DNA of 64,000 nucleotides from Escherichia phage vB_EcoM_ESCO32: the sequence record OM386658.1; one strand, 5' to 3'. Below, piece after piece: positions 1,661 to 38,847 of the stretch. Below the pieces are notes generated by a model. The model saw only the letters and a program-made list of their open reading frames with translations. It was not told the origin of the DNA and searched no databases. A program made the translations under genes and the position numbers. Numbering within the stretch: position 1 is the stretch's first letter; the number at the start of each line of letters is the position of its first letter.

Positions 1661-2011
1661 ATGCTTGATGTAATTATTAATGGTGTTAAATATATTCCTT
1701 ATGTAGAGAAAAGCAATCCTGATGCCTTGGATGTTATGTTTGAGGATTCAGATCTTGGTACTGTCACTGTACGGGAATATTTCCGACAACTACTCTCTAC
1801 GTTATGGAGAGAAGAAGAGTGTTTTAATGGTAAACGTCCATTTGGTAACTCATGCTGGCAATTTGATATGATCCGCGCCTTAATTGAGGCAGGGTATATT
1901 GAAGGTACAGTTGTGTACGATGAAGATGGATATCCAGAAGAGACTGACTACGACAGCAAAGAAGCTAATAAATTTATACAGGGCTTGATTGCACAGATGT
2001 GTTTGGGTTAA
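1661..2011 (+). CDS. hypothetical protein
   Basis: 116 aa ORF starting immediately after the upstream stop. Confidence 0.4.
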   Translation: MLDVIINGVKYIPYVEKSNPDALDVMFEDSDLGTVTVREYFRQLLSTLWREEECFNGKRPFGNSCWQFDMIRALIEAGYIEGTVVYDEDGYPEETDYDSKEANKFIQGLIAQMCLG

Positions 2012-2012
2012 T

Positions 2013-2399
2013 ATGAAAGTATTAAATTTTTACCACTTAGGTAAAGTAATACCTGAAGGTGCAGTTTACATTGGCAGAGCTATGCCTCATATGGGGTTAA
2101 AAGCCTCAAAGTTTGCAAATCCTTTTAAGTTAAAGGATGATGAACCACGAGGGTCAACTATACAAAGATATAAAGAGTGGTTGTGGGAACAAATTCGTTG
2201 TGGTAAAATCACTCTTGAGGATTTGTTAGAATTAGAAGGGAAAGACTTAGTTTGCTTCTGCGCACCTCAACCTTGTCATGGTGATGTGTTGGTAGCAGCG
2301 GTTGCTTGGGCTAGAACAGAGTGGGATAAAAGGCATCCTACTTACACAGATGATTATTGGATTTGGGAGGATATTTATGAAGACTACACAAGAAATTAA
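2013..2399 (+). CDS. DUF4326-like protein
   Basis: VYIGRAMP...KFANPF...YKEWL...GKDLVCFCAPQPCHGDVL matches my memory of the DUF4326 signature (YxGR, NPF, CxC-P-x-CHGDVL). Confidence 0.45.
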   Translation: MKVLNFYHLGKVIPEGAVYIGRAMPHMGLKASKFANPFKLKDDEPRGSTIQRYKEWLWEQIRCGKITLEDLLELEGKDLVCFCAPQPCHGDVLVAAVAWARTEWDKRHPTYTDDYWIWEDIYEDYTRN

Positions 2400-3287: not shown

Positions 3288-3764
3288 ATGTCTAAACGTT
3301 TTGGTCGTAATCAAAAAAGAAAGTTAAGTGCTCAACTAGCAGCTTTGCAAAAAGAGGTTAACACTTTACAAAAAAGTGTTTGTGAACTTAAGGAACAAAA
3401 CCAACTTGAAAAAGAGTGTATCCAGCTTACACAGGAAGTTATTGGTGAGTATTTTCCTTCACTAGTTCCTAAGAAGGTGGCTCTTAGGGAAAATCTACCT
3501 TTTACCTTGTCCTTAATGCAAGCAAATGATAGATTCCAAACTGAAACTGATGATTTGATGTTTGCAATGCATCAATTACATGGTTTAGAATATACAGCAC
3601 AAGTGGATAAACTTCGTAACATGTTATATGTGCGGGTAGAAACACCTAAAGGTGAGACAGTAGCTTTTAATTATAATTTCCAACAGCTACCTGATCATAT
3701 TATTGAACAAATTTTAAAACGAGATTTTGTTCCTATGCTTGTTAAACAAATTAAGAGAGGTTGA
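3288..3764 (+). CDS. hypothetical protein with N-terminal coiled-coil-like segment
   Basis: 158 aa; gggggaaat RBS; N-terminal heptad-like sequence (LSAQLAALQKEVNTLQKSVCELKEQNQLEKE). Confidence 0.4.
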   Translation: MSKRFGRNQKRKLSAQLAALQKEVNTLQKSVCELKEQNQLEKECIQLTQEVIGEYFPSLVPKKVALRENLPFTLSLMQANDRFQTETDDLMFAMHQLHGLEYTAQVDKLRNMLYVRVETPKGETVAFNYNFQQLPDHIIEQILKRDFVPMLVKQIKRG

Positions 3765-3765
3765 A

Positions 3766-6540
3766 ATGGCTAAGAAAGAGTTGAGCTTCACTCCGACAGA
3801 AGAGCAAACAGCTATTAAGGAGGCTTTTCCAGACCATCGCTTTTTAACTATCCAAGCTAAATCTGGGTCAGGCAAAACGTCAACACTTTATTTGCTGGCT
3901 AACAGTACAGAAGATCGCATTCTTTACTTAGCTTTCAATAAAAGCATGGCAGAAGAAGCACGACGTAAGATGCCACTAAATGTAGAATGCCGTACATTGC
4001 ATTCTATTTGCTATCAATTCCTGGATCATCGTTTACGTGCAAAACTGTCACGACCAGAAGGACAGTATGTTAACGTTGCAGGTACAGGTAGTGAGATAGC
4101 AAAGAAATTTAAGATTAATAATCTTATTGATAAACGAGGGAAAACACTTTTAACTCGTGCTATGATCGGTTTAATGATCAAGCAAACCGTAGGTAAGTTT
4201 GAATTTTCGGATGATCCTTTTATCAGCCGTAAACATTTTCCTAGTGTACATCTTGCAGATATTAAAAGAAAAGGTATTAACGAACACAAACTAATTACAG
4301 AAGTAGTTAAGTATGCAAAACAATTGTGGCGAGAGCGCATCGATCCTAACACAGACACTTTGATGACGCATGACACCTATGTAAAATTGTTTGAATTATC
4401 TGGTGCTGATCTTGGTTATGATATTATTTTTGGTGATGAATTCCAGGATGTTAACCCTGCATTCTTATCTATTCTGCGAAATGCTAAATCTGCAAAACAA
4501 ATTGTGGTAGTGGGCGATGAATTCCAATGTGTGTCGGAAAACACGGTACTTAATACCGAGAATGGTCAGGTTACAATGAAAGACCTGCAAATCGGTGATA
4601 AGGTAGAGTCTTATTCTAATGGTAAAGTTACATTTAGAAAAGTAACAAATAAGACTTTATCTACACGTACAAAAGGTAGGAATATTATTACTGCCACAGG
4701 TAAAACTTTAGATATGACACATAACCATCGTATTTGGGCTTCATCCTATGTTCTGAAAGATGATCAGATGGTGGTATACCTAATGTGGAGGAAAGATTTA
4801 GGTTTCCGAGTAGGGATCACTAACAAATTCGATGATAAAGAAGGTTTTTCTAAACTGGGGCAACGTACACGTTCTGAAAAAGCACAGAAATTGTGGGTGT
4901 TGGATATTGTTGAAAACCGTGAAGCTGCTATGGAAAAAGAAATGGCATACAGTTTACAATATGGCATTCCTACTTGTGTATTTGAAGCAAGTTCACGCGG
5001 CATTAATCAAGAAAGGATCAATAACATTTTTGAACAATTCGGACAAAACGGTTTTAAACTTTTAGAGGATAAAGATTATCATTTTGCTTATCCACATTGG
5101 CACAGCATCAATTGTGCAGTAGATGAAAGAAAAATGTTAACAGTGACTTTGCGAGCACAAGGTTGTAAAGGAACACAAGTTAGTTTTGAGTGGACAGAAA
5201 GTGAAATGTCAATCTATGCTTCACTCATTGAAGCAGGTGTAAGCGTAAGTGTTGCTAAGTTGGAAGGTCGTTACCGTGTACGTAAATATTTCAATTCTTA
5301 TCGTGAAGCATTGAGTTTTGCACAAAAGATCCTTGAAATAGTGCCGTTTGCATCTTTAAAAGAATGCATGTCCTCTGTGAACACCGCCAAATATACTTTA
5401 ATTCCGGCGGCGGGTTTGTTTAAAGGCATGTCTGTGTTGGTAAAAGATGGTGATACTGTAACGGCAGAAGAAATTGTGGACATTGTAGATAGTGAAGGTA
5501 TCTATTATGATATTGAAGTAGAGGATACTGCTAACTTCTTTGGCAATGAAATTCTTAGCCACAACTGCATTTATCAATTTAGAGGTAGCTCTAATATGAT
5601 GATTGAAACAGCTAAGTATGGGGCAGAGCTTCCATTAACTGCTTGCTTCCGTTTTGGCCCCAAAGTGGCAAACATTGCCAATATGATTTTAAGCGATAAA
5701 GAACCTTTGCGTCATCCTTTGGTTGGTAAAGGCTTTGATACTGTAGTAGGTAGCTACAAATCAGATGTTGTAGACTATACAAAACCTTACACTATCATCT
5801 TTCGCAAGAATTTAACCTTGCTTATGGAGGCAATGGATCGTATTGCAGATGGGGAAGAAATTATTATTAACGTAGACACCAGGGATTTTATCTCTATGGT
5901 AGATAGTGTTAATGCTCTTCGGAGAGGAGATATTGAGAAAGTAAAACATGAAACTGTATTACCTTACGCAGACTGGGATGAATTTGTTGAGTGTGCAGAG
6001 GCTGATCCAGATGCTAAACGCTTGTTAAACATTGTAGTTTCTGGTAAGGCAAACACTATAGCACATACACTTAGAACGCATAGAAATTCTCCTACAGCAA
6101 AAGTCACACTGACTACAGCACATAAGTCTAAAGGTTTGGAGTGGGATCAGGTTATTGTTGCTAATGATTTTCCTTCCAATTATGATAAAAAGACTGGTGA
6201 GTGGGTAGGACTAGAAGAGGCAGAGCGAAACCTACTGTATGTAGCGCATACCCGTTGTGTTAAATGCTTACAATGGAACACAACCGTACAGGAGATTATA
6301 GATATCAACCGTGTTGCAACAGAGAAAGTACCAACAAGCACCACTTTACCGATCAATGGTATTAAACTTGGTGTATTTGGCGCTGGCACATCTCGAAAAG
6401 CTGTAGAAAAATTTGTTGCAGATTCTTTTGATGGTAACTATAATCATGCACAAGCATATGAGAGTTGGCTAGAGGAAGGTGAAGGTGATTTTTTAGGTGA
6501 AATAAATCTTTTACCAGACATAAATAAACTGGTAAACTAA
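3766..6540 (+). CDS. UvrD/Rep-like superfamily I DNA helicase, interrupted by an intein
   Basis: Walker A AKSGSGKTST; motif II GDEFQDV; motif III split as VVVGDEFQ | intein | CIYQFRGSS. Likely start is MAKKEL at 3766 right after the upstream stop. Confidence 0.7.
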   Translation: MAKKELSFTPTEEQTAIKEAFPDHRFLTIQAKSGSGKTSTLYLLANSTEDRILYLAFNKSMAEEARRKMPLNVECRTLHSICYQFLDHRLRAKLSRPEGQYVNVAGTGSEIAKKFKINNLIDKRGKTLLTRAMIGLMIKQTVGKFEFSDDPFISRKHFPSVHLADIKRKGINEHKLITEVVKYAKQLWRERIDPNTDTLMTHDTYVKLFELSGADLGYDIIFGDEFQDVNPAFLSILRNAKSAKQIVVVGDEFQCVSENTVLNTENGQVTMKDLQIGDKVESYSNGKVTFRKVTNKTLSTRTKGRNIITATGKTLDMTHNHRIWASSYVLKDDQMVVYLMWRKDLGFRVGITNKFDDKEGFSKLGQRTRSEKAQKLWVLDIVENREAAMEKEMAYSLQYGIPTCVFEASSRGINQERINNIFEQFGQNGFKLLEDKDYHFAYPHWHSINCAVDERKMLTVTLRAQGCKGTQVSFEWTESEMSIYASLIEAGVSVSVAKLEGRYRVRKYFNSYREALSFAQKILEIVPFASLKECMSSVNTAKYTLIPAAGLFKGMSVLVKDGDTVTAEEIVDIVDSEGIYYDIEVEDTANFFGNEILSHNCIYQFRGSSNMMIETAKYGAELPLTACFRFGPKVANIANMILSDKEPLRHPLVGKGFDTVVGSYKSDVVDYTKPYTIIFRKNLTLLMEAMDRIADGEEIIINVDTRDFISMVDSVNALRRGDIEKVKHETVLPYADWDEFVECAEADPDAKRLLNIVVSGKANTIAHTLRTHRNSPTAKVTLTTAHKSKGLEWDQVIVANDFPSNYDKKTGEWVGLEEAERNLLYVAHTRCVKCLQWNTTVQEIIDINRVATEKVPTSTTLPINGIKLGVFGAGTSRKAVEKFVADSFDGNYNHAQAYESWLEEGEGDFLGEINLLPDINKLVN
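4528..5565 (+). mobile_element. intein (about 346 aa) inside helicase motif III, with a possible degenerate endonuclease core
   Basis: Begins with Cys (CVSENTVLNTENGQVTMKDLQIGDKV, block A-like); block B-like TxxH (MTHNHRIW); ends YYDIEVEDTANFFGNEILSHN followed by +1 Cys. The flanking exteins rejoin into a canonical helicase motif III. Confidence 0.6.
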
Positions 6541-6550
6541 GGGGGTTAAA

Positions 6551-6802
6551 GTGGCAGGGTATCATTTGAAGGAGATTAGCAAAGAGGAATATGGTTCTGT
6601 TGCTAAGATTCAAGAAGAGCTTTATGAACTTCAAGATGCTATTGATCAAGATTGCAAGCTGATGCAACTTATTGAGTTATCAGATATTGTAGGCGCTGTT
6701 GAAGGTGTTCTTGAACAGCATTTTCCTGGTATGACGCTTCAAGATTTGATCACTATGTCAAACATTACTAAACGTGCATTCCGCAATGGAGGTCGATCAT
6801 GA
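6551..6802 (+). CDS. MazG-like nucleotide pyrophosphohydrolase domain protein (putative)
   Basis: 83 aa, GTG start; IQEELYELQDAIDQD...LIELSDIVGAVEGVL resembles the EExxE...E/D-x-x-D helical signature of small MazG-like proteins. Confidence 0.3.
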   Translation: MAGYHLKEISKEEYGSVAKIQEELYELQDAIDQDCKLMQLIELSDIVGAVEGVLEQHFPGMTLQDLITMSNITKRAFRNGGRS

Positions 6803-7371
6803 ATGTTGCAGTAATAGCTCAAGCTATTGATTACTATGGTCGATTTGCACAAATGTTAGAAGTTCCATATCTCGTGGATGCTGATATACTGGCGTATACA
6901 CTACCAGAAAATAAAGAGGATCGCCCATTAGGGCATCCTAACGGTAAATACTATGTAGCTAGTGCAGAACAATCTTTCCTGCAAATGGAGAAGGATGGTT
7001 TTGAATTTGCAGTAGGTAATCCGTATATGGCACTAACACCATGTTACCGCACAGAAGAAAATTTAGATGATACCCATTTTAATATTTTCTTGAAATTGGA
7101 GTTGATTGAGTTCTACCCTGATGCTACAATTGAAGAGTATGCTAACTCTATACGCTGTTTCTTCTCTACTTATTATGGAGTTAAAACATATTTAGTACCC
7201 ACTAATATTGGGGTTGACGTAGAGGATGAATATGGTTTAGAATTAGGTTCATTCGGTATGAGGGAGTCTCCAAGAGGTCATCCTTATATCTATGCAACAG
7301 GTATTGCGGAGCCTAGGGCTTCACTGGCAATAAACCGTGTTGTAAATAACATTCAAAGCATTAGCAAATAA
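6799..7371 (+). CDS. class II aminoacyl-tRNA synthetase-like minimal catalytic core (putative)
   Basis: CYRTEENLDDTHFNIFLKLELIEFY resembles class II motif 2 of the LysRS/EpmA group (FRNEG...HNPEFT..E.Y); ATGIAEPRASLAI resembles motif 3 (GxGxxxR). Only 190 aa, so truncated relative to real synthetases. Confidence 0.25.
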   Translation: MNVAVIAQAIDYYGRFAQMLEVPYLVDADILAYTLPENKEDRPLGHPNGKYYVASAEQSFLQMEKDGFEFAVGNPYMALTPCYRTEENLDDTHFNIFLKLELIEFYPDATIEEYANSIRCFFSTYYGVKTYLVPTNIGVDVEDEYGLELGSFGMRESPRGHPYIYATGIAEPRASLAINRVVNNIQSISK

Positions 7372-7383
7372 AAGGAGAATAGA

Positions 7384-7818
7384 ATGTCTATTGTGACACA
7401 AATGAAAGCAGATCGTATCTTAGCACGTACAACCGATAAGGGTGCTTTTGCTTTGTTAACTAATATTATTGGTGAGTTTGACCTTGCTCGTACTCAAAAG
7501 GCAAATCTAAACAAATCAGAAGACGATATTATGATTAACATTGTTAAGATTGGTATTGCACACGCTAAAGAGGAACTAGACTCACTTAAGAAAGTTAATG
7601 CCTCCATTAGCAAATGTGAGCGAGCTATGCGTGATATCACCACTCTGGAAAAATATTTGCCAGAAATGCTATCTGAAGATGATCTTCGAGCTATTGCTGA
7701 AGAATTTGCCTTGACAGGCAAGAAAATGCCAGATATGATGAAACACCTTAAAGCAGAGTATCCGAATCAATATGATGGAAAACTTGCTTCTACCATTGCA
7801 AAAGAAATTTTAAACTAA
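7384..7818 (+). CDS. GatB/YqeY-domain protein
   Basis: LEKYLPEMLSEDDLRAIAEE and MPDMMKHLKAEYPNQYDGKLASTIAKEIL match the conserved C-terminal blocks of YqeY/GatB-C domain proteins as I recall them (..EYLP.QLSEEEL.. and ..MGKVMG....GKADGK.V...VKE.L). Confidence 0.5.
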   Translation: MSIVTQMKADRILARTTDKGAFALLTNIIGEFDLARTQKANLNKSEDDIMINIVKIGIAHAKEELDSLKKVNASISKCERAMRDITTLEKYLPEMLSEDDLRAIAEEFALTGKKMPDMMKHLKAEYPNQYDGKLASTIAKEILN

Positions 7819-7835
7819 TTTAGAAGGAGAACATA

Positions 7836-8786
7836 ATGATTGCATTTTACGCTAATAAACTGGAAGTTAAAAAAGCAGCAGAAGAGATGGGTATCCTGCA
7901 TATTCTTAACGAAGCAATTCACAAGAGTTTTGGTTACACAACTGAAGCAGAAATCAATGATCTGATTCACAGTGTTAATGATTTGTTCTTCTACCCTAAC
8001 TTTCTACAGCAGTTAGATGGTTGTGGATTTGAATATATGGAGCTTCATCCTGAATATACATTTATGGAAGTAACACCTGAAGGTTTTCTGGAGATTATTC
8101 GTACTGAATATCTTGCTAAAGAGGATAAAGAAAAAGATATGGCTGAAAAAGTACAACTGACTGTGCATAATACGTGTTTCCTGGATACTGAGGCCACGGA
8201 AGAAAATATTAATTATCTGCTTTCCGTTTGTAATCCTCGTTGTCCACAACCACATTGGAAAAATGCAGATCATTATCTAATGTATTCAACTGAAGAAAAC
8301 ATTACTTTCTTCGATGAAAACAGTGGTATTAATGGTGCACATAAGAATTCTCCATATAGGAAAGATCGGTTTGTAGTTGATGTAAAAACATTTACTAAAC
8401 TGTTTGATGAGTATTATTCAAAAAATGAAAGTAAGACTGAATCTTCACCAAAACCACGTTTTCGCCGACCGCGTAAACCTGTGCCTACTCGTTCTGTAAG
8501 TTATGTTCGTATCATTTACACTACACAGCAGGTATATACTCTTAAGAACGTAAGTGCTCTTACTGTACAAGAAGATGCAATTAATATTGTGCGCAATAAT
8601 GTTATTACAGAGGGTATTGAGGAAAAGATTATGTCTGTTATCGATCCTAAACTTGTTATGGCAATCATTATTAATGAACCAAAAGGTGTAACAACATTGT
8701 TCCGAAATATTCACGGTACTTGGGAAACTCAAGTTGACGGTTTGACTTCTGACGGTTGTACACGTATTACCAAAAACCTTGACTAA
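7836..8786 (+). CDS. hypothetical protein
   Basis: 316 aa ORF with aaggagaacata RBS. Confidence 0.4.
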   Translation: MIAFYANKLEVKKAAEEMGILHILNEAIHKSFGYTTEAEINDLIHSVNDLFFYPNFLQQLDGCGFEYMELHPEYTFMEVTPEGFLEIIRTEYLAKEDKEKDMAEKVQLTVHNTCFLDTEATEENINYLLSVCNPRCPQPHWKNADHYLMYSTEENITFFDENSGINGAHKNSPYRKDRFVVDVKTFTKLFDEYYSKNESKTESSPKPRFRRPRKPVPTRSVSYVRIIYTTQQVYTLKNVSALTVQEDAINIVRNNVITEGIEEKIMSVIDPKLVMAIIINEPKGVTTLFRNIHGTWETQVDGLTSDGCTRITKNLD

Positions 8787-8833
8787 GATCAAGGACAATC
8801 TTACGAAAAAGATTTAAAATAAAGATCCACCCT

Positions 8834-8862
8834 AAAGCCAGCTTAATGCTGGCTTTTATTTT
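8834..8862 (+). terminator. intrinsic terminator-like hairpin
   Basis: aaagccagc-ttaat-gctggcttt followed by a T run (tttatttt). Confidence 0.5.
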
Positions 8863-8875
8863 CCACGGAGGATTA

Positions 8876-27536: not shown

Positions 27537-29309
27537 GTGTCTTATGTTGTAAATAAATATGGGTATAACATTGACCTAAGTCAAGAAGGACATACTGGGT
27601 GTCCTCGTTGTATGAAAGGAGGGCGTGATCGATCACAAAACAATTTGATGGTATATGGCTTAGATGCCGATGAAGACCATCGAGGCGCACATTGTTTTTC
27701 TTGTGGCTTTACTATCCCTGATCAAAAATGGTTAAATGCACACGGTGAAGAAATTGAAGAGGAGGATATCTTGGGTAGTGAGTTTAATCCAGAAGTACAT
27801 GATAAACTAAAAGCCAGCACTGGAACTAATCCAAAAGGTTATCGCGGTATTCGTGAAGATATCTCTAAACCTTTCGGTGTACGCTATATGTACGATGAAG
27901 CTACTGGCGAAGTAATTTCAACACTATACCCTACAACTAAAGATTACAATATTGCTGGGTATAAACAACGTATCGATCCAAAAGATTTTTCGCATCCTAT
28001 TGGTGAAACAGGAAAGGATTGTGATCTTTTTGGTGAGTTTAAATATCGTAACCACAGTGGTACTATTCTAATCGTTGGTGGTGAACACGATATGCTGGCT
28101 GCAACACAGATGCTAAAAGATTATAACAAGGGCGGTAAATATCCTGTTCCTGCTGTAGTGTCTGGTACTTGTGGCGAAACATCTCTGCATAAGCAGCTTC
28201 AACATCGTTATAAATTCTTAGATCAATTTAAAAAGATTGTTCTGTGTATGGATAATGATGAAGCTGGACGTGCAGCAGTTGAGAAATGTGTTAAAATCTT
28301 ACCACGTAATAAAGTTTACGTGATGGAACTAACGGATGTTAAAGATCCTAACCAGGCACTAGTAGAAGGAAAAATTGATCATTTTATTGATCGCTTTTTC
28401 AAAGCTAAATTGTACACACCTGCTGGTGTTTACGCTTCTAACGTACTGTATGAAGCAGCCTTGGAATGCCTGGAAGCTAAAATGATCACCCTTCCTCCAT
28501 TCATGCGTGTTGCTTCTAATATGTTAGGTGGAGGCTTGGTAGAAGAAGAAATTACTGTTATACTTGCAAAAACAAGTATCGGTAAGACACTGTTGGTTAA
28601 CGAGATTACGAAACACATTATTCTTGCACACCCAGAACATACTCTTGGTATTTTATCTTTGGAGGCAACGTATAAGAAGTATTCTCGTAACTTGCTGTCT
28701 TCATTCTTGCATATCCCTCTTCACCGTAAAACAAAAGAAGAGAAGGAAAAGATTTTAAAAGATAATGAAGAAAAGATTCGTGATTTTTACGAACGAGAAG
28801 ATGGAACACCACGTTTCTATGTTTGTGATGATCGTGGGGCTAACGTAGATGTGATTAAAGAGAAGGTTCTGGAAATGATTATTTATTTCGGAGTAACCAT
28901 TCTTGTTATCGACCCTTATTCTGACTTGCTTTCTGGTATGGACGTGTCACAACAAGAGGAACTTGCGACGTGGCTGAAACGCATTATGAAAGAGTACGCA
29001 ATAACCATTGTTGTAATTTCACACGTTAAAAAGTCTTCTAACAATAGTAATGAACATATTGTAGAAGATGATGCAATGGGTAGTAGCTTCCTTGCTAAAG
29101 GTGCTGGTATCACAATTGCGCTGGAGCGTGATAAACAAGCTGAAGATCCTATGGAACGTAACCGCACATATTGCTACATTCTAAAGAACCGTGAGTTCTC
29201 AGAGACTGGTGCAGCAGGTAGTTTCTTCTATGAGATTAAAACAGCTACACTTCACGATTACGATCAATACACAAGTAACCCAGAAAATATTTCTGCTGGT
29301 TCTTATTAA
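27537..29309 (+). CDS. bifunctional DNA primase / DnaB-like helicase (T7 gp4-like)
   Basis: N-terminal zinc ribbon CPRCMKGG...HCFSCGF, a TOPRIM-like middle region, and C-terminal helicase with Walker A ILAKTSIGKT and Walker B-like ILVIDPYSD. GTG start after taggaga. Confidence 0.8.
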   Translation: MSYVVNKYGYNIDLSQEGHTGCPRCMKGGRDRSQNNLMVYGLDADEDHRGAHCFSCGFTIPDQKWLNAHGEEIEEEDILGSEFNPEVHDKLKASTGTNPKGYRGIREDISKPFGVRYMYDEATGEVISTLYPTTKDYNIAGYKQRIDPKDFSHPIGETGKDCDLFGEFKYRNHSGTILIVGGEHDMLAATQMLKDYNKGGKYPVPAVVSGTCGETSLHKQLQHRYKFLDQFKKIVLCMDNDEAGRAAVEKCVKILPRNKVYVMELTDVKDPNQALVEGKIDHFIDRFFKAKLYTPAGVYASNVLYEAALECLEAKMITLPPFMRVASNMLGGGLVEEEITVILAKTSIGKTLLVNEITKHIILAHPEHTLGILSLEATYKKYSRNLLSSFLHIPLHRKTKEEKEKILKDNEEKIRDFYEREDGTPRFYVCDDRGANVDVIKEKVLEMIIYFGVTILVIDPYSDLLSGMDVSQQEELATWLKRIMKEYAITIVVISHVKKSSNNSNEHIVEDDAMGSSFLAKGAGITIALERDKQAEDPMERNRTYCYILKNREFSETGAAGSFFYEIKTATLHDYDQYTSNPENISAGSY

Positions 29310-35805: not shown

Positions 35806-36537
35806 ATGAGCGAATTTGTAAACAACACCGCGTTAAACTACCTGCAAACCCTCGAAAGCAATAGTGTAGATTTGATTCTTACTGACCCACCATATGCTAT
35901 TTCTCGTGACACAAATTTTCAATCTGGAGAGCCTACTGGAAAAGATACAGATAGATTCCGTGTATCTTACAACTTTGGGGATTGGGATGTTGTAGATATT
36001 CCTTACTTTAAAGAAGTATTCAAAGAAGCCTATAGGGTGCTTAGAAAAGGTGGTACTTGCATAGTTTGGTATGATATCTGGAAGATCCAGGAGCTACGTG
36101 AAATCCTTGAACCGCTTGGTTTTCGTATGTTCCGTACTATTGAATGGATTAAAACAAACCCTGTACCCATCAACAGTGGTGTTAACTACCTTAGTAACGC
36201 TAAAGAGATGGCTATTGTTTGTGTTAAAGGTTCTAAGCCAACCTTCAATGCCTCCTACCACAAGGGTGTGTTTGAGTATCCTATCTATCAAGGAGCAGAT
36301 CGTTTTCATCCGACACAAAAACACTTGACTTTGTTTTGTGACCTTATTAATATACATACCAACGAAGGAGATGTAGTCTTAGACTTCTTCTCTGGAAGTG
36401 CAACAACACAAGTTGCGGCACTTTTAACAGGTAGAGAATACTTAGGCTGTGAAGCCGATGTAAATATTTTTAAGCAAGCGGAGGAACGACTAAATGAGTA
36501 CACTGAACAGCAAAATCACCCTGAAAGCACTGATTAA
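35806..36537 (+). CDS. DNA methyltransferase (amino-MTase; N6-adenine or N4-cytosine), orphan
   Basis: Motif IV LILTDPPYAISRD (DPPY) near the N-terminus and motif I-like VVLDFFSGSATT near the C-terminus; no adjacent restriction endonuclease gene recognised. Confidence 0.7.
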   Translation: MSEFVNNTALNYLQTLESNSVDLILTDPPYAISRDTNFQSGEPTGKDTDRFRVSYNFGDWDVVDIPYFKEVFKEAYRVLRKGGTCIVWYDIWKIQELREILEPLGFRMFRTIEWIKTNPVPINSGVNYLSNAKEMAIVCVKGSKPTFNASYHKGVFEYPIYQGADRFHPTQKHLTLFCDLINIHTNEGDVVLDFFSGSATTQVAALLTGREYLGCEADVNIFKQAEERLNEYTEQQNHPESTD

Positions 36538-36925
36538 CAACGGTATGAACCTGGACTCTGGTCTGTCTCCAAAGATTTCTATGGCACGACTAGAACAAGT
36601 TACTGGTCTTCGTCAAGTAAGTAATGGCGGTAAGATTATTCGTGATGACGCTGTACCTTTTAATAAATTTCAGATTGAACGTCATTACGATCCTGTAACT
36701 GCAAGTCTCACTGGTGTAACTTTCTCAGGTTATCGTACTGCCGGATACCAACGTAAGGTTGTAGCTGAACGTATTAAAAATCGCAAACAGAAAATTGCAA
36801 CATTGAAGAAACTAGTAGAGAAAGATGTTTCAGAACTTCTTAACCTGTATGAAACTCTTGAGACAAAAGGTGAAGATCATAAACTCTTCTCTAAAGAAGA
36901 TGTGAGCGTAATTTTCACTGATTAA
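36494..36925 (+). CDS. hypothetical protein
   Basis: 143 aa, last plus-strand gene before the strand switch; start overlaps the end of the MTase gene. Confidence 0.4.
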   Translation: MSTLNSKITLKALINNGMNLDSGLSPKISMARLEQVTGLRQVSNGGKIIRDDAVPFNKFQIERHYDPVTASLTGVTFSGYRTAGYQRKVVAERIKNRKQKIATLKKLVEKDVSELLNLYETLETKGEDHKLFSKEDVSVIFTD

Positions 36926-36936
36926 GATAAAAGAAA

Positions 36937-36960
36937 AGGAGCCTATTGGCTCCTTTTTGT
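36937..36960. terminator. bidirectional intrinsic terminator at the convergent strand switch
   Basis: aggagcc-tatt-ggctcct flanked by A-rich sequence upstream and ttttgttt downstream; sits between the converging gene ends at 36925 (+) and 36961 (-). Confidence 0.5.
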
Positions 36961-38847
36961 TTATGTAACATTGACTGTAAATCTGACAAGAGGTGATAAC
37001 ACGTCATTATCAGCATCATAGTGTGCAACATCAAACACTGCTGTACCTGCTGCAAACCCGTATTGTTCAACCTGATCTGCATAAGTAAATGTGTAAGTGT
37101 TAGTATCAAGAGTTTGTTCTGTAAGAATTGCTGCTGTGAGGACGTTTACATTTCGGAAGTAATGTTTGGTATATCCTGCTGGTTCCCAAGAAATAATTGC
37201 ATCTTGGTTAGCTTGTCTTACAGCGGCTCCTCCTGTTGGAACAGACATATCAACCCAAACAGGTGGTGTTGATGTTAAATCTGTACCGTCTGCTGCTGAT
37301 TTAGCAAGTTTTGTAGCTGCTGTTTGATATACAGAAGAAATATAATGGATACGACCATCAATACCTTCTTCATAAACATAACCACTGTAACGTTCAGCAC
37401 CATCTACCCAAGAACCAATGATAACATCATCACGTGCTGTAGAGATGGTTCTTTGTACATTTCTGTACTTCTGCCAATCCACACCATTAACTTCTACACC
37501 ATATAAATAAGAACGTCCTAGGATCTGCCAAACAATTTTTGCTTGAGAAGCAGGAACTATTGTACGCATCTTATCAAAGATAGCTATCGTAGCATCATGG
37601 TAACGTGTAGTGTTACTGTACCTACCTGCAACAGTCGAAGATGCTGATACAGCATCATTTTCACCTTGTCCCCAAATAATTGCTTTAACCTTACTTGCAT
37701 AAGGTGTGACTTTAGTGATAAAGTTAGTTAAGCATGGCCCATCTGCTGTGTTATCCAGATCATACCAGTAGTTGTCTGGTGTACCTGTTCCAGCTTTATC
37801 GTCAGCATATTTATCTGCTGCTGATGATCCAGAAGCTGTATTTAACGGAAGAACTTCAGCATTTGCTAAACCACGTTGCGTAGCATATGCATTACGGGTT
37901 GTTGTGCTACTCATTACTGCTTTATTTGCACCAGATAATTCTGTAAAGTGTGCATTTACGTTATCTTGTCCAGCAAAGACAATAACTTCTTTAATGAACG
38001 AATCATCTGTAGCTATTGAGTTATTAAAGATAACGGCTGCTGCTTTGGTGCTCTTAACGCTAATTTTAAGGTATGTTGGAGCAAACCCATAAAGAGGAAT
38101 AGAGTCAGAGATATCAAAGTAAGCGTAAGTATTCGTGGTTGTTGTAGTCCACTGAACACTATTATCACTTAAATCTAATACTTCTACAGTATAAGTATCA
38201 CCGTCTAGTGGATCAGTTACATCCCAAGCAACACGAACGTCTCCATAACTGTTTGCCACGGCTGTTACATTAGAAATAACAGGAATAGCATTAACACCTA
38301 AATAAGAACTATCAGAGGCCACAACTGTTCCTTGATACGTTGCAGTACAACCTATACGGCAATTGCCATCTTTAAGAGCAGTTATTAATCCTGTAGGGCT
38401 TACAGTAGCTACTTCTGGATCTGTTGTGGTGTATGTAATTACCATATCTGGAAGGTCTTTAGCACCTTCTGGACTGATTGTAGCAACCAACTGTTGAGTA
38501 GTGCCTACATCCATAGCCGATAGACTTTCAGTGTACACACTTAATTCTGAAGCATAACCACCAGATTGATCAGTTAAGACAGCACCTAAATTATTTTTAG
38601 CTGTCATTATTGCATCAAAACCACCTTCAGCAACAAACTCCATCATACCATTATTATCTATAACCATTTTGGTATTATCTGAAGATGAAAAAGCTATATC
38701 AAATAACGCACCATCTTCGGGTGTAACTGTATATGTCAGTTGTTTTTTACTACCAACTATTGCAATGCCAATAGAGGAAGTGGTTATAGATGTAGCTGTT
38801 ACTACTGAAGCTGATGTTGTTGACATAAATAAAGGAATAGGATACAT
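36961..38847 (-). CDS. tail fibre/decoration protein with two Big_2-like Ig domains and an SGNH/sialate-O-acetylesterase-like (DUF303-like) domain
   Basis: Two Big_2-like segments (IGIAIVGSKKQLTYTVTPEDG...; MDVGTTQQLVATISPEG...TTTDPEVATVSPTGLITALKDGNCRIGCTAT); esterase-like VFAGQDNV and IIWGQGENDA (compare GQSNM and WxQGExD). Confidence 0.45.
   Translation of the reverse strand: MYPIPLFMSTTSASVVTATSITTSSIGIAIVGSKKQLTYTVTPEDGALFDIAFSSSDNTKMVIDNNGMMEFVAEGGFDAIMTAKNNLGAVLTDQSGGYASELSVYTESLSAMDVGTTQQLVATISPEGAKDLPDMVITYTTTDPEVATVSPTGLITALKDGNCRIGCTATYQGTVVASDSSYLGVNAIPVISNVTAVANSYGDVRVAWDVTDPLDGDTYTVEVLDLSDNSVQWTTTTTNTYAYFDISDSIPLYGFAPTYLKISVKSTKAAAVIFNNSIATDDSFIKEVIVFAGQDNVNAHFTELSGANKAVMSSTTTRNAYATQRGLANAEVLPLNTASGSSAADKYADDKAGTGTPDNYWYDLDNTADGPCLTNFITKVTPYASKVKAIIWGQGENDAVSASSTVAGRYSNTTRYHDATIAIFDKMRTIVPASQAKIVWQILGRSYLYGVEVNGVDWQKYRNVQRTISTARDDVIIGSWVDGAERYSGYVYEEGIDGRIHYISSVYQTAATKLAKSAADGTDLTSTPPVWVDMSVPTGGAAVRQANQDAIISWEPAGYTKHYFRNVNVLTAAILTEQTLDTNTYTFTYADQVEQYGFAAGTAVFDVAHYDADNDVLSPLVRFTVNVT

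Follow-up and report, generated by a model that had tools for sequence, protein, structure and literature searches.

A minimal class II synthetase core derived from SerRS and its HisE/MazG-like companion in Escherichia phage vB_EcoM_ESCO32 and other phages

Organization of the mini-SerRS locus

The genome stretch of Escherichia phage vB_EcoM_ESCO32 analyzed here (sequence record OM386658.1; 64,000 nucleotides, hereafter the window) contains three short co-directional genes, one of which encodes a miniature relative of seryl-tRNA synthetase (SerRS). The first gene, at positions 6551–6802 (+), begins with a GTG start codon and encodes an 83-residue HisE/MazG-type protein homologous to gp197 of phage phi92. 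The second, at 6799–7371 (+), is the mini-SerRS gene; its 190-residue product is a homolog of phi92 gp196 and carries motifs 1, 2 and 3 of class II aminoacyl-tRNA synthetases (aaRSs), with no N-terminal tRNA-binding arm. The adjacent third gene, at 7384–7818 (+), encodes a 144-residue YqeY/GatB-tail protein homologous to phi92 gp195. We find that the 190-residue protein is a SerRS-derived catalytic core of the class II aaRSs, minimal yet complete, and that it is coupled to the 83-residue protein in the window and across phages.

The three open reading frames (ORFs) have exactly the coordinates and strand given in a first-pass annotation made from the sequence alone. The upstream helicase gene ends at 6540, and a GGGGG sequence lies 5 nucleotides ahead of the GTG of the 83-residue ORF. 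The sequence reads ATGA at 6799–6802 (+), where the start of the 190-residue ORF overlaps the stop of the 83-residue ORF, and a GGAGG sequence at 6788–6792 is located 6 nucleotides 5' of that start. The ATGA overlap couples the translation of the two genes, as the first-pass annotation had proposed. The YqeY ORF starts 12 nucleotides past the end of the 190-residue ORF and is preceded by its own Shine-Dalgarno sequence, AAGGAG.

Positions 6400–8900 of the window, which comes from a phi92-like phage, are 98.6–99.0% identical to Escherichia phages ZYD, VivaForever, JLBYU50 and phi92, which belong to Justusliebigvirus (Stephanstirmvirinae), and the three ORFs, well beyond a chance occurrence, are kept at 98–99% identity in 55 phage records. 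The gene order in phi92 is gp198 (helicase), gp197, gp196, gp195 and gp194. The three genes are already annotated piecemeal in public records, and both the core and the 83-residue protein belong to known superfamilies. In GenBank and other current annotation, the 83-residue protein is named 'putative phosphoribosyl-ATP pyrophosphatase', 'MazG' or hypothetical; the core is a 'putative seryl-tRNA synthetase', a 'histidyl tRNA synthetase' or an 'RNA polymerase alpha CTD'; and the 144-residue protein is a 'GatB/YqeY domain-containing protein' or a 'tRNA amidotransferase'. Four records labeled 'Campylobacter phage' with the host C. jejuni (MG065639, MG065645, MG065656 and MG065689) are 98.8% identical to the E. 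coli phi92-like phages in this region, which suggests a host mislabel or contamination.

Structure of the core and its companion

The 190-residue core adopts the catalytic fold of class II enzymes and contains their motifs 1, 2 and 3, and structure comparison identifies SerRS as its closest fold. HisRS, HisZ, the amino acid:carrier-protein ligase Bll0957 and PylRS score approximately 16.4–16.7, and GenX/EpmA and AsnA score 13.4. The profile of the core family matches Aquifex SerRS (2dq3) with an E-value of 4.5e-5, ahead of AspRS and PylRS, and hhalign aligns it to the SerRSs of E. coli and P. aeruginosa with a probability of 88.8%. A fold search of the BFVD database with the core gave no matches other than family members and aaRSs of giant viruses.

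The alignment of the core to SerRS extends over all three motifs. Motif 1 is VPYLV in both proteins, motif 2 of the core, ALTPCYRxE, corresponds to AHTPCFRSE, and motif 3, GTGxAEPR, to GSGLAVGR. Two further segments of the core, SAEQS and FLKLE, align to TAEVP and FDKVE. The ELGS segment (E148, S151) is the counterpart of EISS in SerRS, an assignment made by strand order and not from a printed structural alignment. All the active-site signatures of SerRS (TAE, TPCFRxE, FxKxE, ExxS and GSGxAxGR) are matched in the core, and most of its aligned positions correspond to residues that hold ATP, Mg and serine in the adenylate structures of T. thermophilus SerRS.

Thirteen positions (S55, C82, R84, F97, K99, E101, D140, E148, G150, S151, G153, T167 and R173) are invariant in all 79 members of the core family, some of which share less than 30% identity, and most of the thirteen fall in segments aligned to the SerRS signature motifs. 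Judging from these alignments, purifying selection on the conserved positions, including the counterparts of the SerRS active site, is strong. Because of the invariant positions, we regard the core as having a working active site, and not as a decayed fragment.

The core is considerably smaller than SerRS. Members of its family are 176–200 residues long, whereas E. coli SerRS has about 430 residues and its catalytic part alone about 245. The alignment to E. coli SerRS starts at residue 168 and spans residues 168–414 (~245 residues). The predicted structure of the core begins at motif 1 and contains no long helical hairpin; an N-terminal coiled-coil arm was not found in the 190 residues. In SerRS, aminoacylation depends on this arm, which binds the long variable arm of tRNASer. 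The core has a motif-2 loop approximately six residues shorter than that of E. coli SerRS and trimmed inserts between motifs 2 and 3. The missing arm, the shortened loops and inserts, the HisE-like companion and the restriction to phages distinguish the core from SerRS.

The class II aaRS-like fold of the 190-residue protein and its truncation to a core without tRNA-binding appendages had both been recognized in the first-pass annotation, and both are borne out by the structure comparison and by the predicted structure. Its suggestion of an affinity to EpmA or AsnA was rejected, since the fold and the profile are closest to SerRS. The core is also not of the LysRS type (class IIb) that underlies EpmA/GenX/PoxA. 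It differs from HisZ, which has a HisRS-derived sequence and a HisG partner, in its SerRS lineage, in keeping its catalytic residues and in being accompanied by a HisE-like protein.

The 83-residue protein probably belongs to the HisE/MazG-type all-α nucleoside triphosphate (NTP) pyrophosphohydrolase-like proteins, a fold call made from several weak and concordant signals. HisE and MazG are the top matches of its family profile in the PDB and also its top structural matches, in agreement with the MazG-like call of the first-pass annotation. The protein is predicted to form three helices. Residues E22, E23, E26, E42 and D45 constitute an EExxE...ExxD metal motif that shows no variation in two alignments, of 42 and 52 sequences, and the carboxylates are positioned on helices 17–32 and 36–57 of the predicted structure. 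In the PDB alignments, HisE is matched by an N-terminal stretch of the form [SG]Y..(K)G...K[IV]xEE. Particular to the family are an invariant GYH at the N-terminus and an invariant TKRAFxxGxR at the C-terminus. The protein thus resembles HisE and MazG in its helical hairpin with EExxE...ExxD acidic residues, and differs from them in having only 83 residues and three helices and in being genetically linked to an aaRS-like core. An ELSD motif had raised the idea that the 83-residue protein is an ACP-like (acyl carrier protein) acceptor; this was rejected, because the model and the profile match HisE/MazG and the acidic motif fits EExxE...ExxD. Carrier-protein ligases have an adjacent phosphopantetheine carrier, whereas the neighbor of the core matches HisE/MazG and neither ACP nor a peptidyl carrier protein.

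Conservation of the gene pair and its surroundings

We collected 86 related loci from contig look-ups, IMG/VR (64 loci) and GTDB genomes (15 loci), and called their ORFs with our own scripts. The two genes are on the same strand in 82 of the 86 loci; most loci were retrieved by core-specific peptide patterns, and this pairing figure of about 95% presupposes that the core is present. The spacing between the genes in the 82 loci is at most 120 nucleotides in 56 and 121–1431 nucleotides in 20, and in the remaining 6 the two are fused into a single ORF, in which an N-terminal core is followed by a C-terminal HisE-like domain. In most related loci, the stop and start codons of the two genes overlap (−1 or −4 nucleotides). 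An exhaustive profile search for the core yielded at least 1083 clusters at 50% identity (E ≤ 1e-30), and the top 150 cluster representatives include eight more fusions of the same architecture. Five of the six locus fusions are on contigs binned as giant viruses (L059 and L063, GVMAG) or as DPANN (L076, L078 and L080, from metagenome-assembled genomes (MAGs) of Nanoarchaeota or archaea), which are probably mis-binned contigs of huge phages. Core homologs P0214, P0220 and P0224 have cysteine-rich, zinc-ribbon-like C-terminal tails in place of the HisE-like fusion.

The distribution of the 83-residue family mirrors that of the core. The family comprises 2515 clusters at 90% identity, and in three loci picked through it, the core lies no more than approximately 0.5 kb downstream; two of them have it directly adjacent. 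Among cultured phages, the core occurs in 272 records and the 83-residue family in 262, with near-matching breakdowns by host: Escherichia (111 records with the core, 112 with the 83-residue family), Acinetobacter (61 and 53), Caulobacter (13 and 13), Pectobacterium (10 and 10) and Cronobacter (8 and 8). The HisE/MazG-like protein, and not YqeY, is the near-obligate companion of the core, in place of the mere neighbor that the first-pass annotation had taken it for.

A scan of 185,579 GTDB species genomes gave 15 core matches, of which 13 are MAG contigs, one is a 775-bp contig and one is a record not labeled as a MAG; no cellular homolog of the core is evident among these genomes. The most frequent neighbor families in 67 loci dereplicated at 70% identity are NUDIX/NMNAT, radical-SAM, UvrD and RlaP. 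Clustering of 700 neighboring genes with jackhmmer placed no family besides the pair in over 5 of the 67 loci, and EF-P, EpmB, phosphopantetheinyl transferase and HisG-like genes are not recurrent near the pair in the same set. Scans with the PADLOC and NCBIfam libraries gave no match for either member of the pair. Since no other neighbor family recurs, we consider the pair a self-contained, phage-restricted module.

The 144-residue product of the third gene is a true member of the YqeY family that is free-standing and phage-encoded. It matches PF09424 with 30.3 bits, above the cut-off of 27 (E-value 5.3e-7), which agrees with the first-pass call, and B. subtilis YqeY 1ng6 with an E-value of 1e-4. 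Only phi92-like phages and one other lineage, L004, have YqeY at a distance of 6 kb or less from the core. The 117 cultured-phage records that contain YqeY are distributed differently among hosts (45 Escherichia, 44 Vibrio and 7 Sinorhizobium). The phAPEC8-like relatives (L007) have the pair and no YqeY gene nearby. Conversely, Klebsiella phage FKP3, from the genus of phi92, retains YqeY at the corresponding position, and the mini-SerRS/HisE-like pair is absent from the 50 kb of FKP3 that were examined; three unrelated small ORFs occupy its place, at 28369–29267 (L089/L090). FKP3 is also without NrdD and NrdG at the position matching that in the window. The module of a truncated aaRS and YqeY proposed in the first-pass annotation was rejected on this distribution and on FKP3. 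The YqeY gene is an accessory of the phi92 lineage and not a part of the conserved module. By analogy with the YqeY domain that, in the single case studied, raised the tRNA affinity of D. radiodurans GlnRS, and did so only in cis (PMC1865053), YqeY might add tRNA affinity; the module does not require YqeY.

The genomic context of the pair points weakly to tRNA. tRNA genes are present, as a raw count, in 17 of the 67 loci at 6 kb or less from the pair, and in five loci the pair is situated inside arrays of 12–18 tRNAs. Dense arrays with 5–18 tRNAs per 12 kb surround the pair in jumbo-phage loci L027, L028, L038, L042, L045 and L068. In Vibrio phage 2.275.O (L002), two tRNA-Ser genes are the only tRNAs nearby. 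A gene of RlaP (PF10127), an RNA-repair-associated Pol-β nucleotidyltransferase, is found within a few kilobases of the pair in 12 loci; loci bearing it include L002 (gene at 7835–9085), L012–L015, L019, L023, L032, L033, L041 and L083. TyrRS/TrpRS-like genes are near the pair in two loci.

The genes surrounding the three-gene locus in the window are of several kinds. The UvrD/Rep-type helicase encoded at 3727–6540 (+) contains an intein, with Intein_splicing and Hint matches at residues ~254–600 of 924, and its 578-residue homolog in JLBYU50 is intein-free. A 316-residue ORF at 7836–8786 (+) is labeled 'ribonucleotide reductase' by PHROGs (phrog_15930) and GenBank, and has no Pfam or NCBIfam match; this label appears doubtful, because a full NrdD (609 residues, PF13597) and NrdG follow at 8846–11142. 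A DUF4326 protein (E-value 1.8e-21) is encoded at 1989–2399 (+), and 10 related loci other than the window have a homolog no more than 6 kb from the pair. The JLBYU50 homolog is named 'ribonucleoside-diphosphate reductase 1 alpha subunit', and an FKP3 ORF at the corresponding upstream position 'NrdA-like ribonucleotide reductase'. The GC skew of the window turns from positive to negative around positions 36000–38000, which probably reflects a change of the predominant coding strand.

A proposed heteromeric enzyme and alternative functions

We consider it probable that the pair constitutes one heteromeric adenylate-forming enzyme, since gene fusions are a classic indicator of a single enzyme. 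Our preferred reading is more specific and tentative: the pair would be a two-gene, sometimes one-gene, phage module, most likely one heteromeric enzyme that makes seryl-adenylate for a nucleotide-type ligand or acceptor. The core and the HisE-like protein would be produced in 1:1 coupling and act as one heteromer. After binding ATP together with serine, or with a small amino acid that closely resembles it, the core would form the aminoacyl-adenylate. Because the coiled-coil arm is missing and the motif-2 loop is short, canonical recognition of tRNASer is not expected, so that the HisE-like subunit would supply, hold or process the second substrate. Relatives of the HisE-like subunit bind ATP-type triphosphates through Mg. 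The activated seryl group could pass to an acceptor that is bound, presented or processed by the HisE-like subunit via its triphosphate/Mg site. For the acceptor we favor a nucleotide-like molecule, which may be a free nucleoside phosphate or the adenosine at the 3' end of a tRNA. A seryl-tRNA or a seryl-nucleotide would then result, or an Ap4N-type compound if an NTP attacks the adenylate. We would name any particular acceptor with little confidence. It is likewise doubtful, though conceivable, that the pair is a new phage enzyme, in which an 'urzyme-sized' SerRS core dependent on a HisE/MazG-like subunit serylates a nucleotide, giving an aminoacyl-nucleotide or Ap4N-type metabolite for host takeover or counter-defense, or charges or repairs tRNA 3' ends without a canonical tRNA-recognition domain.

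Several observations weigh against this proposal. The predicted serine specificity of the core derives from the SerRS alignment and not from a docked ligand, and the identity of the acceptor is purely conjectural. The 64-kb window contains no tRNA genes, and its local context of NrdD, NrdG and the helicase is one of nucleotide metabolism. The association with tRNA arrays is without a proper background control, and several of the loci come from related lineages. Both proteins of the window are acidic, with isoelectric points of 4.5–4.7 (family medians 4.8–5.3), which lends no support to RNA binding, although acidic aaRSs are common. The Pfam family PRA-PH matches 27 of 42 members of the 83-residue family weakly, with scores below the gathering cut-off. 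To our knowledge, a class II core acting together with an all-α NTP pyrophosphohydrolase is without precedent.

The first-pass annotation had suggested that its aaRS–YqeY module might modify tRNA or a translation factor, or serve as a decoy against a defense that targets tRNA. The core could alternatively be a true minimal SerRS that charges host or phage tRNASer and thereby boosts or insulates phage translation, with tRNA affinity provided in trans by YqeY in phi92-like phages or by other factors. Of the alternatives considered here, this one comes nearest to the aaRS–YqeY idea of the first-pass annotation. The fully kept SerRS-type active-site motifs and the closest fold agree with this explanation, as do the pairs within tRNA arrays of several phages, the two tRNA-Ser genes of L002 and the YqeY gene adjoining the pair in the window, given the effect of the YqeY domain on GlnRS (PMC1865053). 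We nevertheless regard it as unlikely. The coiled-coil arm is missing and the motif-2 loop is shortened, over 95% of lineages have no YqeY in the neighborhood of the pair, the YqeY domain of GlnRS worked only in cis (PMC1865053), and the near-obligate HisE-like companion would be left without a role. A further explanation is a HisZ-type arrangement, in which the core senses serine, ATP or uncharged tRNA and switches the NTP pyrophosphohydrolase of the companion, tuning nucleotide pools during infection. The similarity of the companion to HisE, its closest match, and the nucleotide-metabolism genes here and at some other loci (NrdD, NrdG and NUDIX) are consistent with such a sensor. Its probability is nonetheless small, since the counterparts of the adenylate-chemistry residues (the arginines of motifs 2 and 3 and the equivalents of the Mg-binding Glu and Ser) are invariant beyond the need of a pure sensor, the sequence affinity of the core is to SerRS and not to HisRS or HisZ, and no HisG-like gene recurs nearby.

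A small helical protein encoded directly upstream, and sometimes fused to the core, would suit a protein aminoacylase resembling EpmA or the carrier ligases, which would put an amino acid on the 83-residue protein or on a host translation factor. Phosphopantetheinyl transferase, EpmB and EF-P-like genes are, however, not recurrent near the pair, and we consider this activity very unlikely. Finally, the pair might represent two unrelated enzymes that happen to lie side by side, a MazG-type sanitizer of the dNTP pool and a decayed SerRS fragment, in keeping with the separate annotation of the two in genome papers and GenBank under nucleotide metabolism and protein metabolism. This is hardly credible: the same-strand adjacency persists to below 30% identity, the 14 fusions look independent, the phyletic distributions match, and the purifying selection on the conserved positions of the core appears strong.

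Known enzymes provide partial parallels to the proposed activity. EpmA/GenX/PoxA and the Bll0957-type ligases are, like the core, truncated class II cores, and they activate an amino acid for a non-tRNA acceptor. GluQRS/YadB, a truncated class I GluRS without an anticodon-binding domain, glutamylates queuosine in tRNAAsp and is a conceptual precedent for an aaRS core that attaches an activated amino acid to the hydroxyl of a nucleoside. Unlike the core, GluQRS is a class I enzyme of unrelated fold that is not known to have an obligate partner. In the literature searched, we found no paper that treats the mini-SerRS/HisE-like pair as a unit; one genome paper lists the MazG genes g118 and g119 under nucleotide metabolism and the 'SerRS' gene g121 under protein metabolism, unlinked. 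The coupling of a SerRS-derived mini-core to a HisE/MazG-like protein is new in that no description of it was found in that literature.

The inconsistent current labels of the genes hide the linkage between the core and its companion, and the genes are present in tractable, well-used E. coli phages, namely phi92, phAPEC8-like phages and the BASEL relatives PaulScherrer and JohannJBalmer. With 176–200 residues, the members of the core family are among the smallest natural and apparently complete class II catalytic cores known to us, and small natural cores of this class bear on arguments about minimal ancestral synthetases. If our reading is correct, the pair would define a large phage-specific family of non-canonical aaRS paralogs, with a type of partner never before linked to aaRS chemistry.

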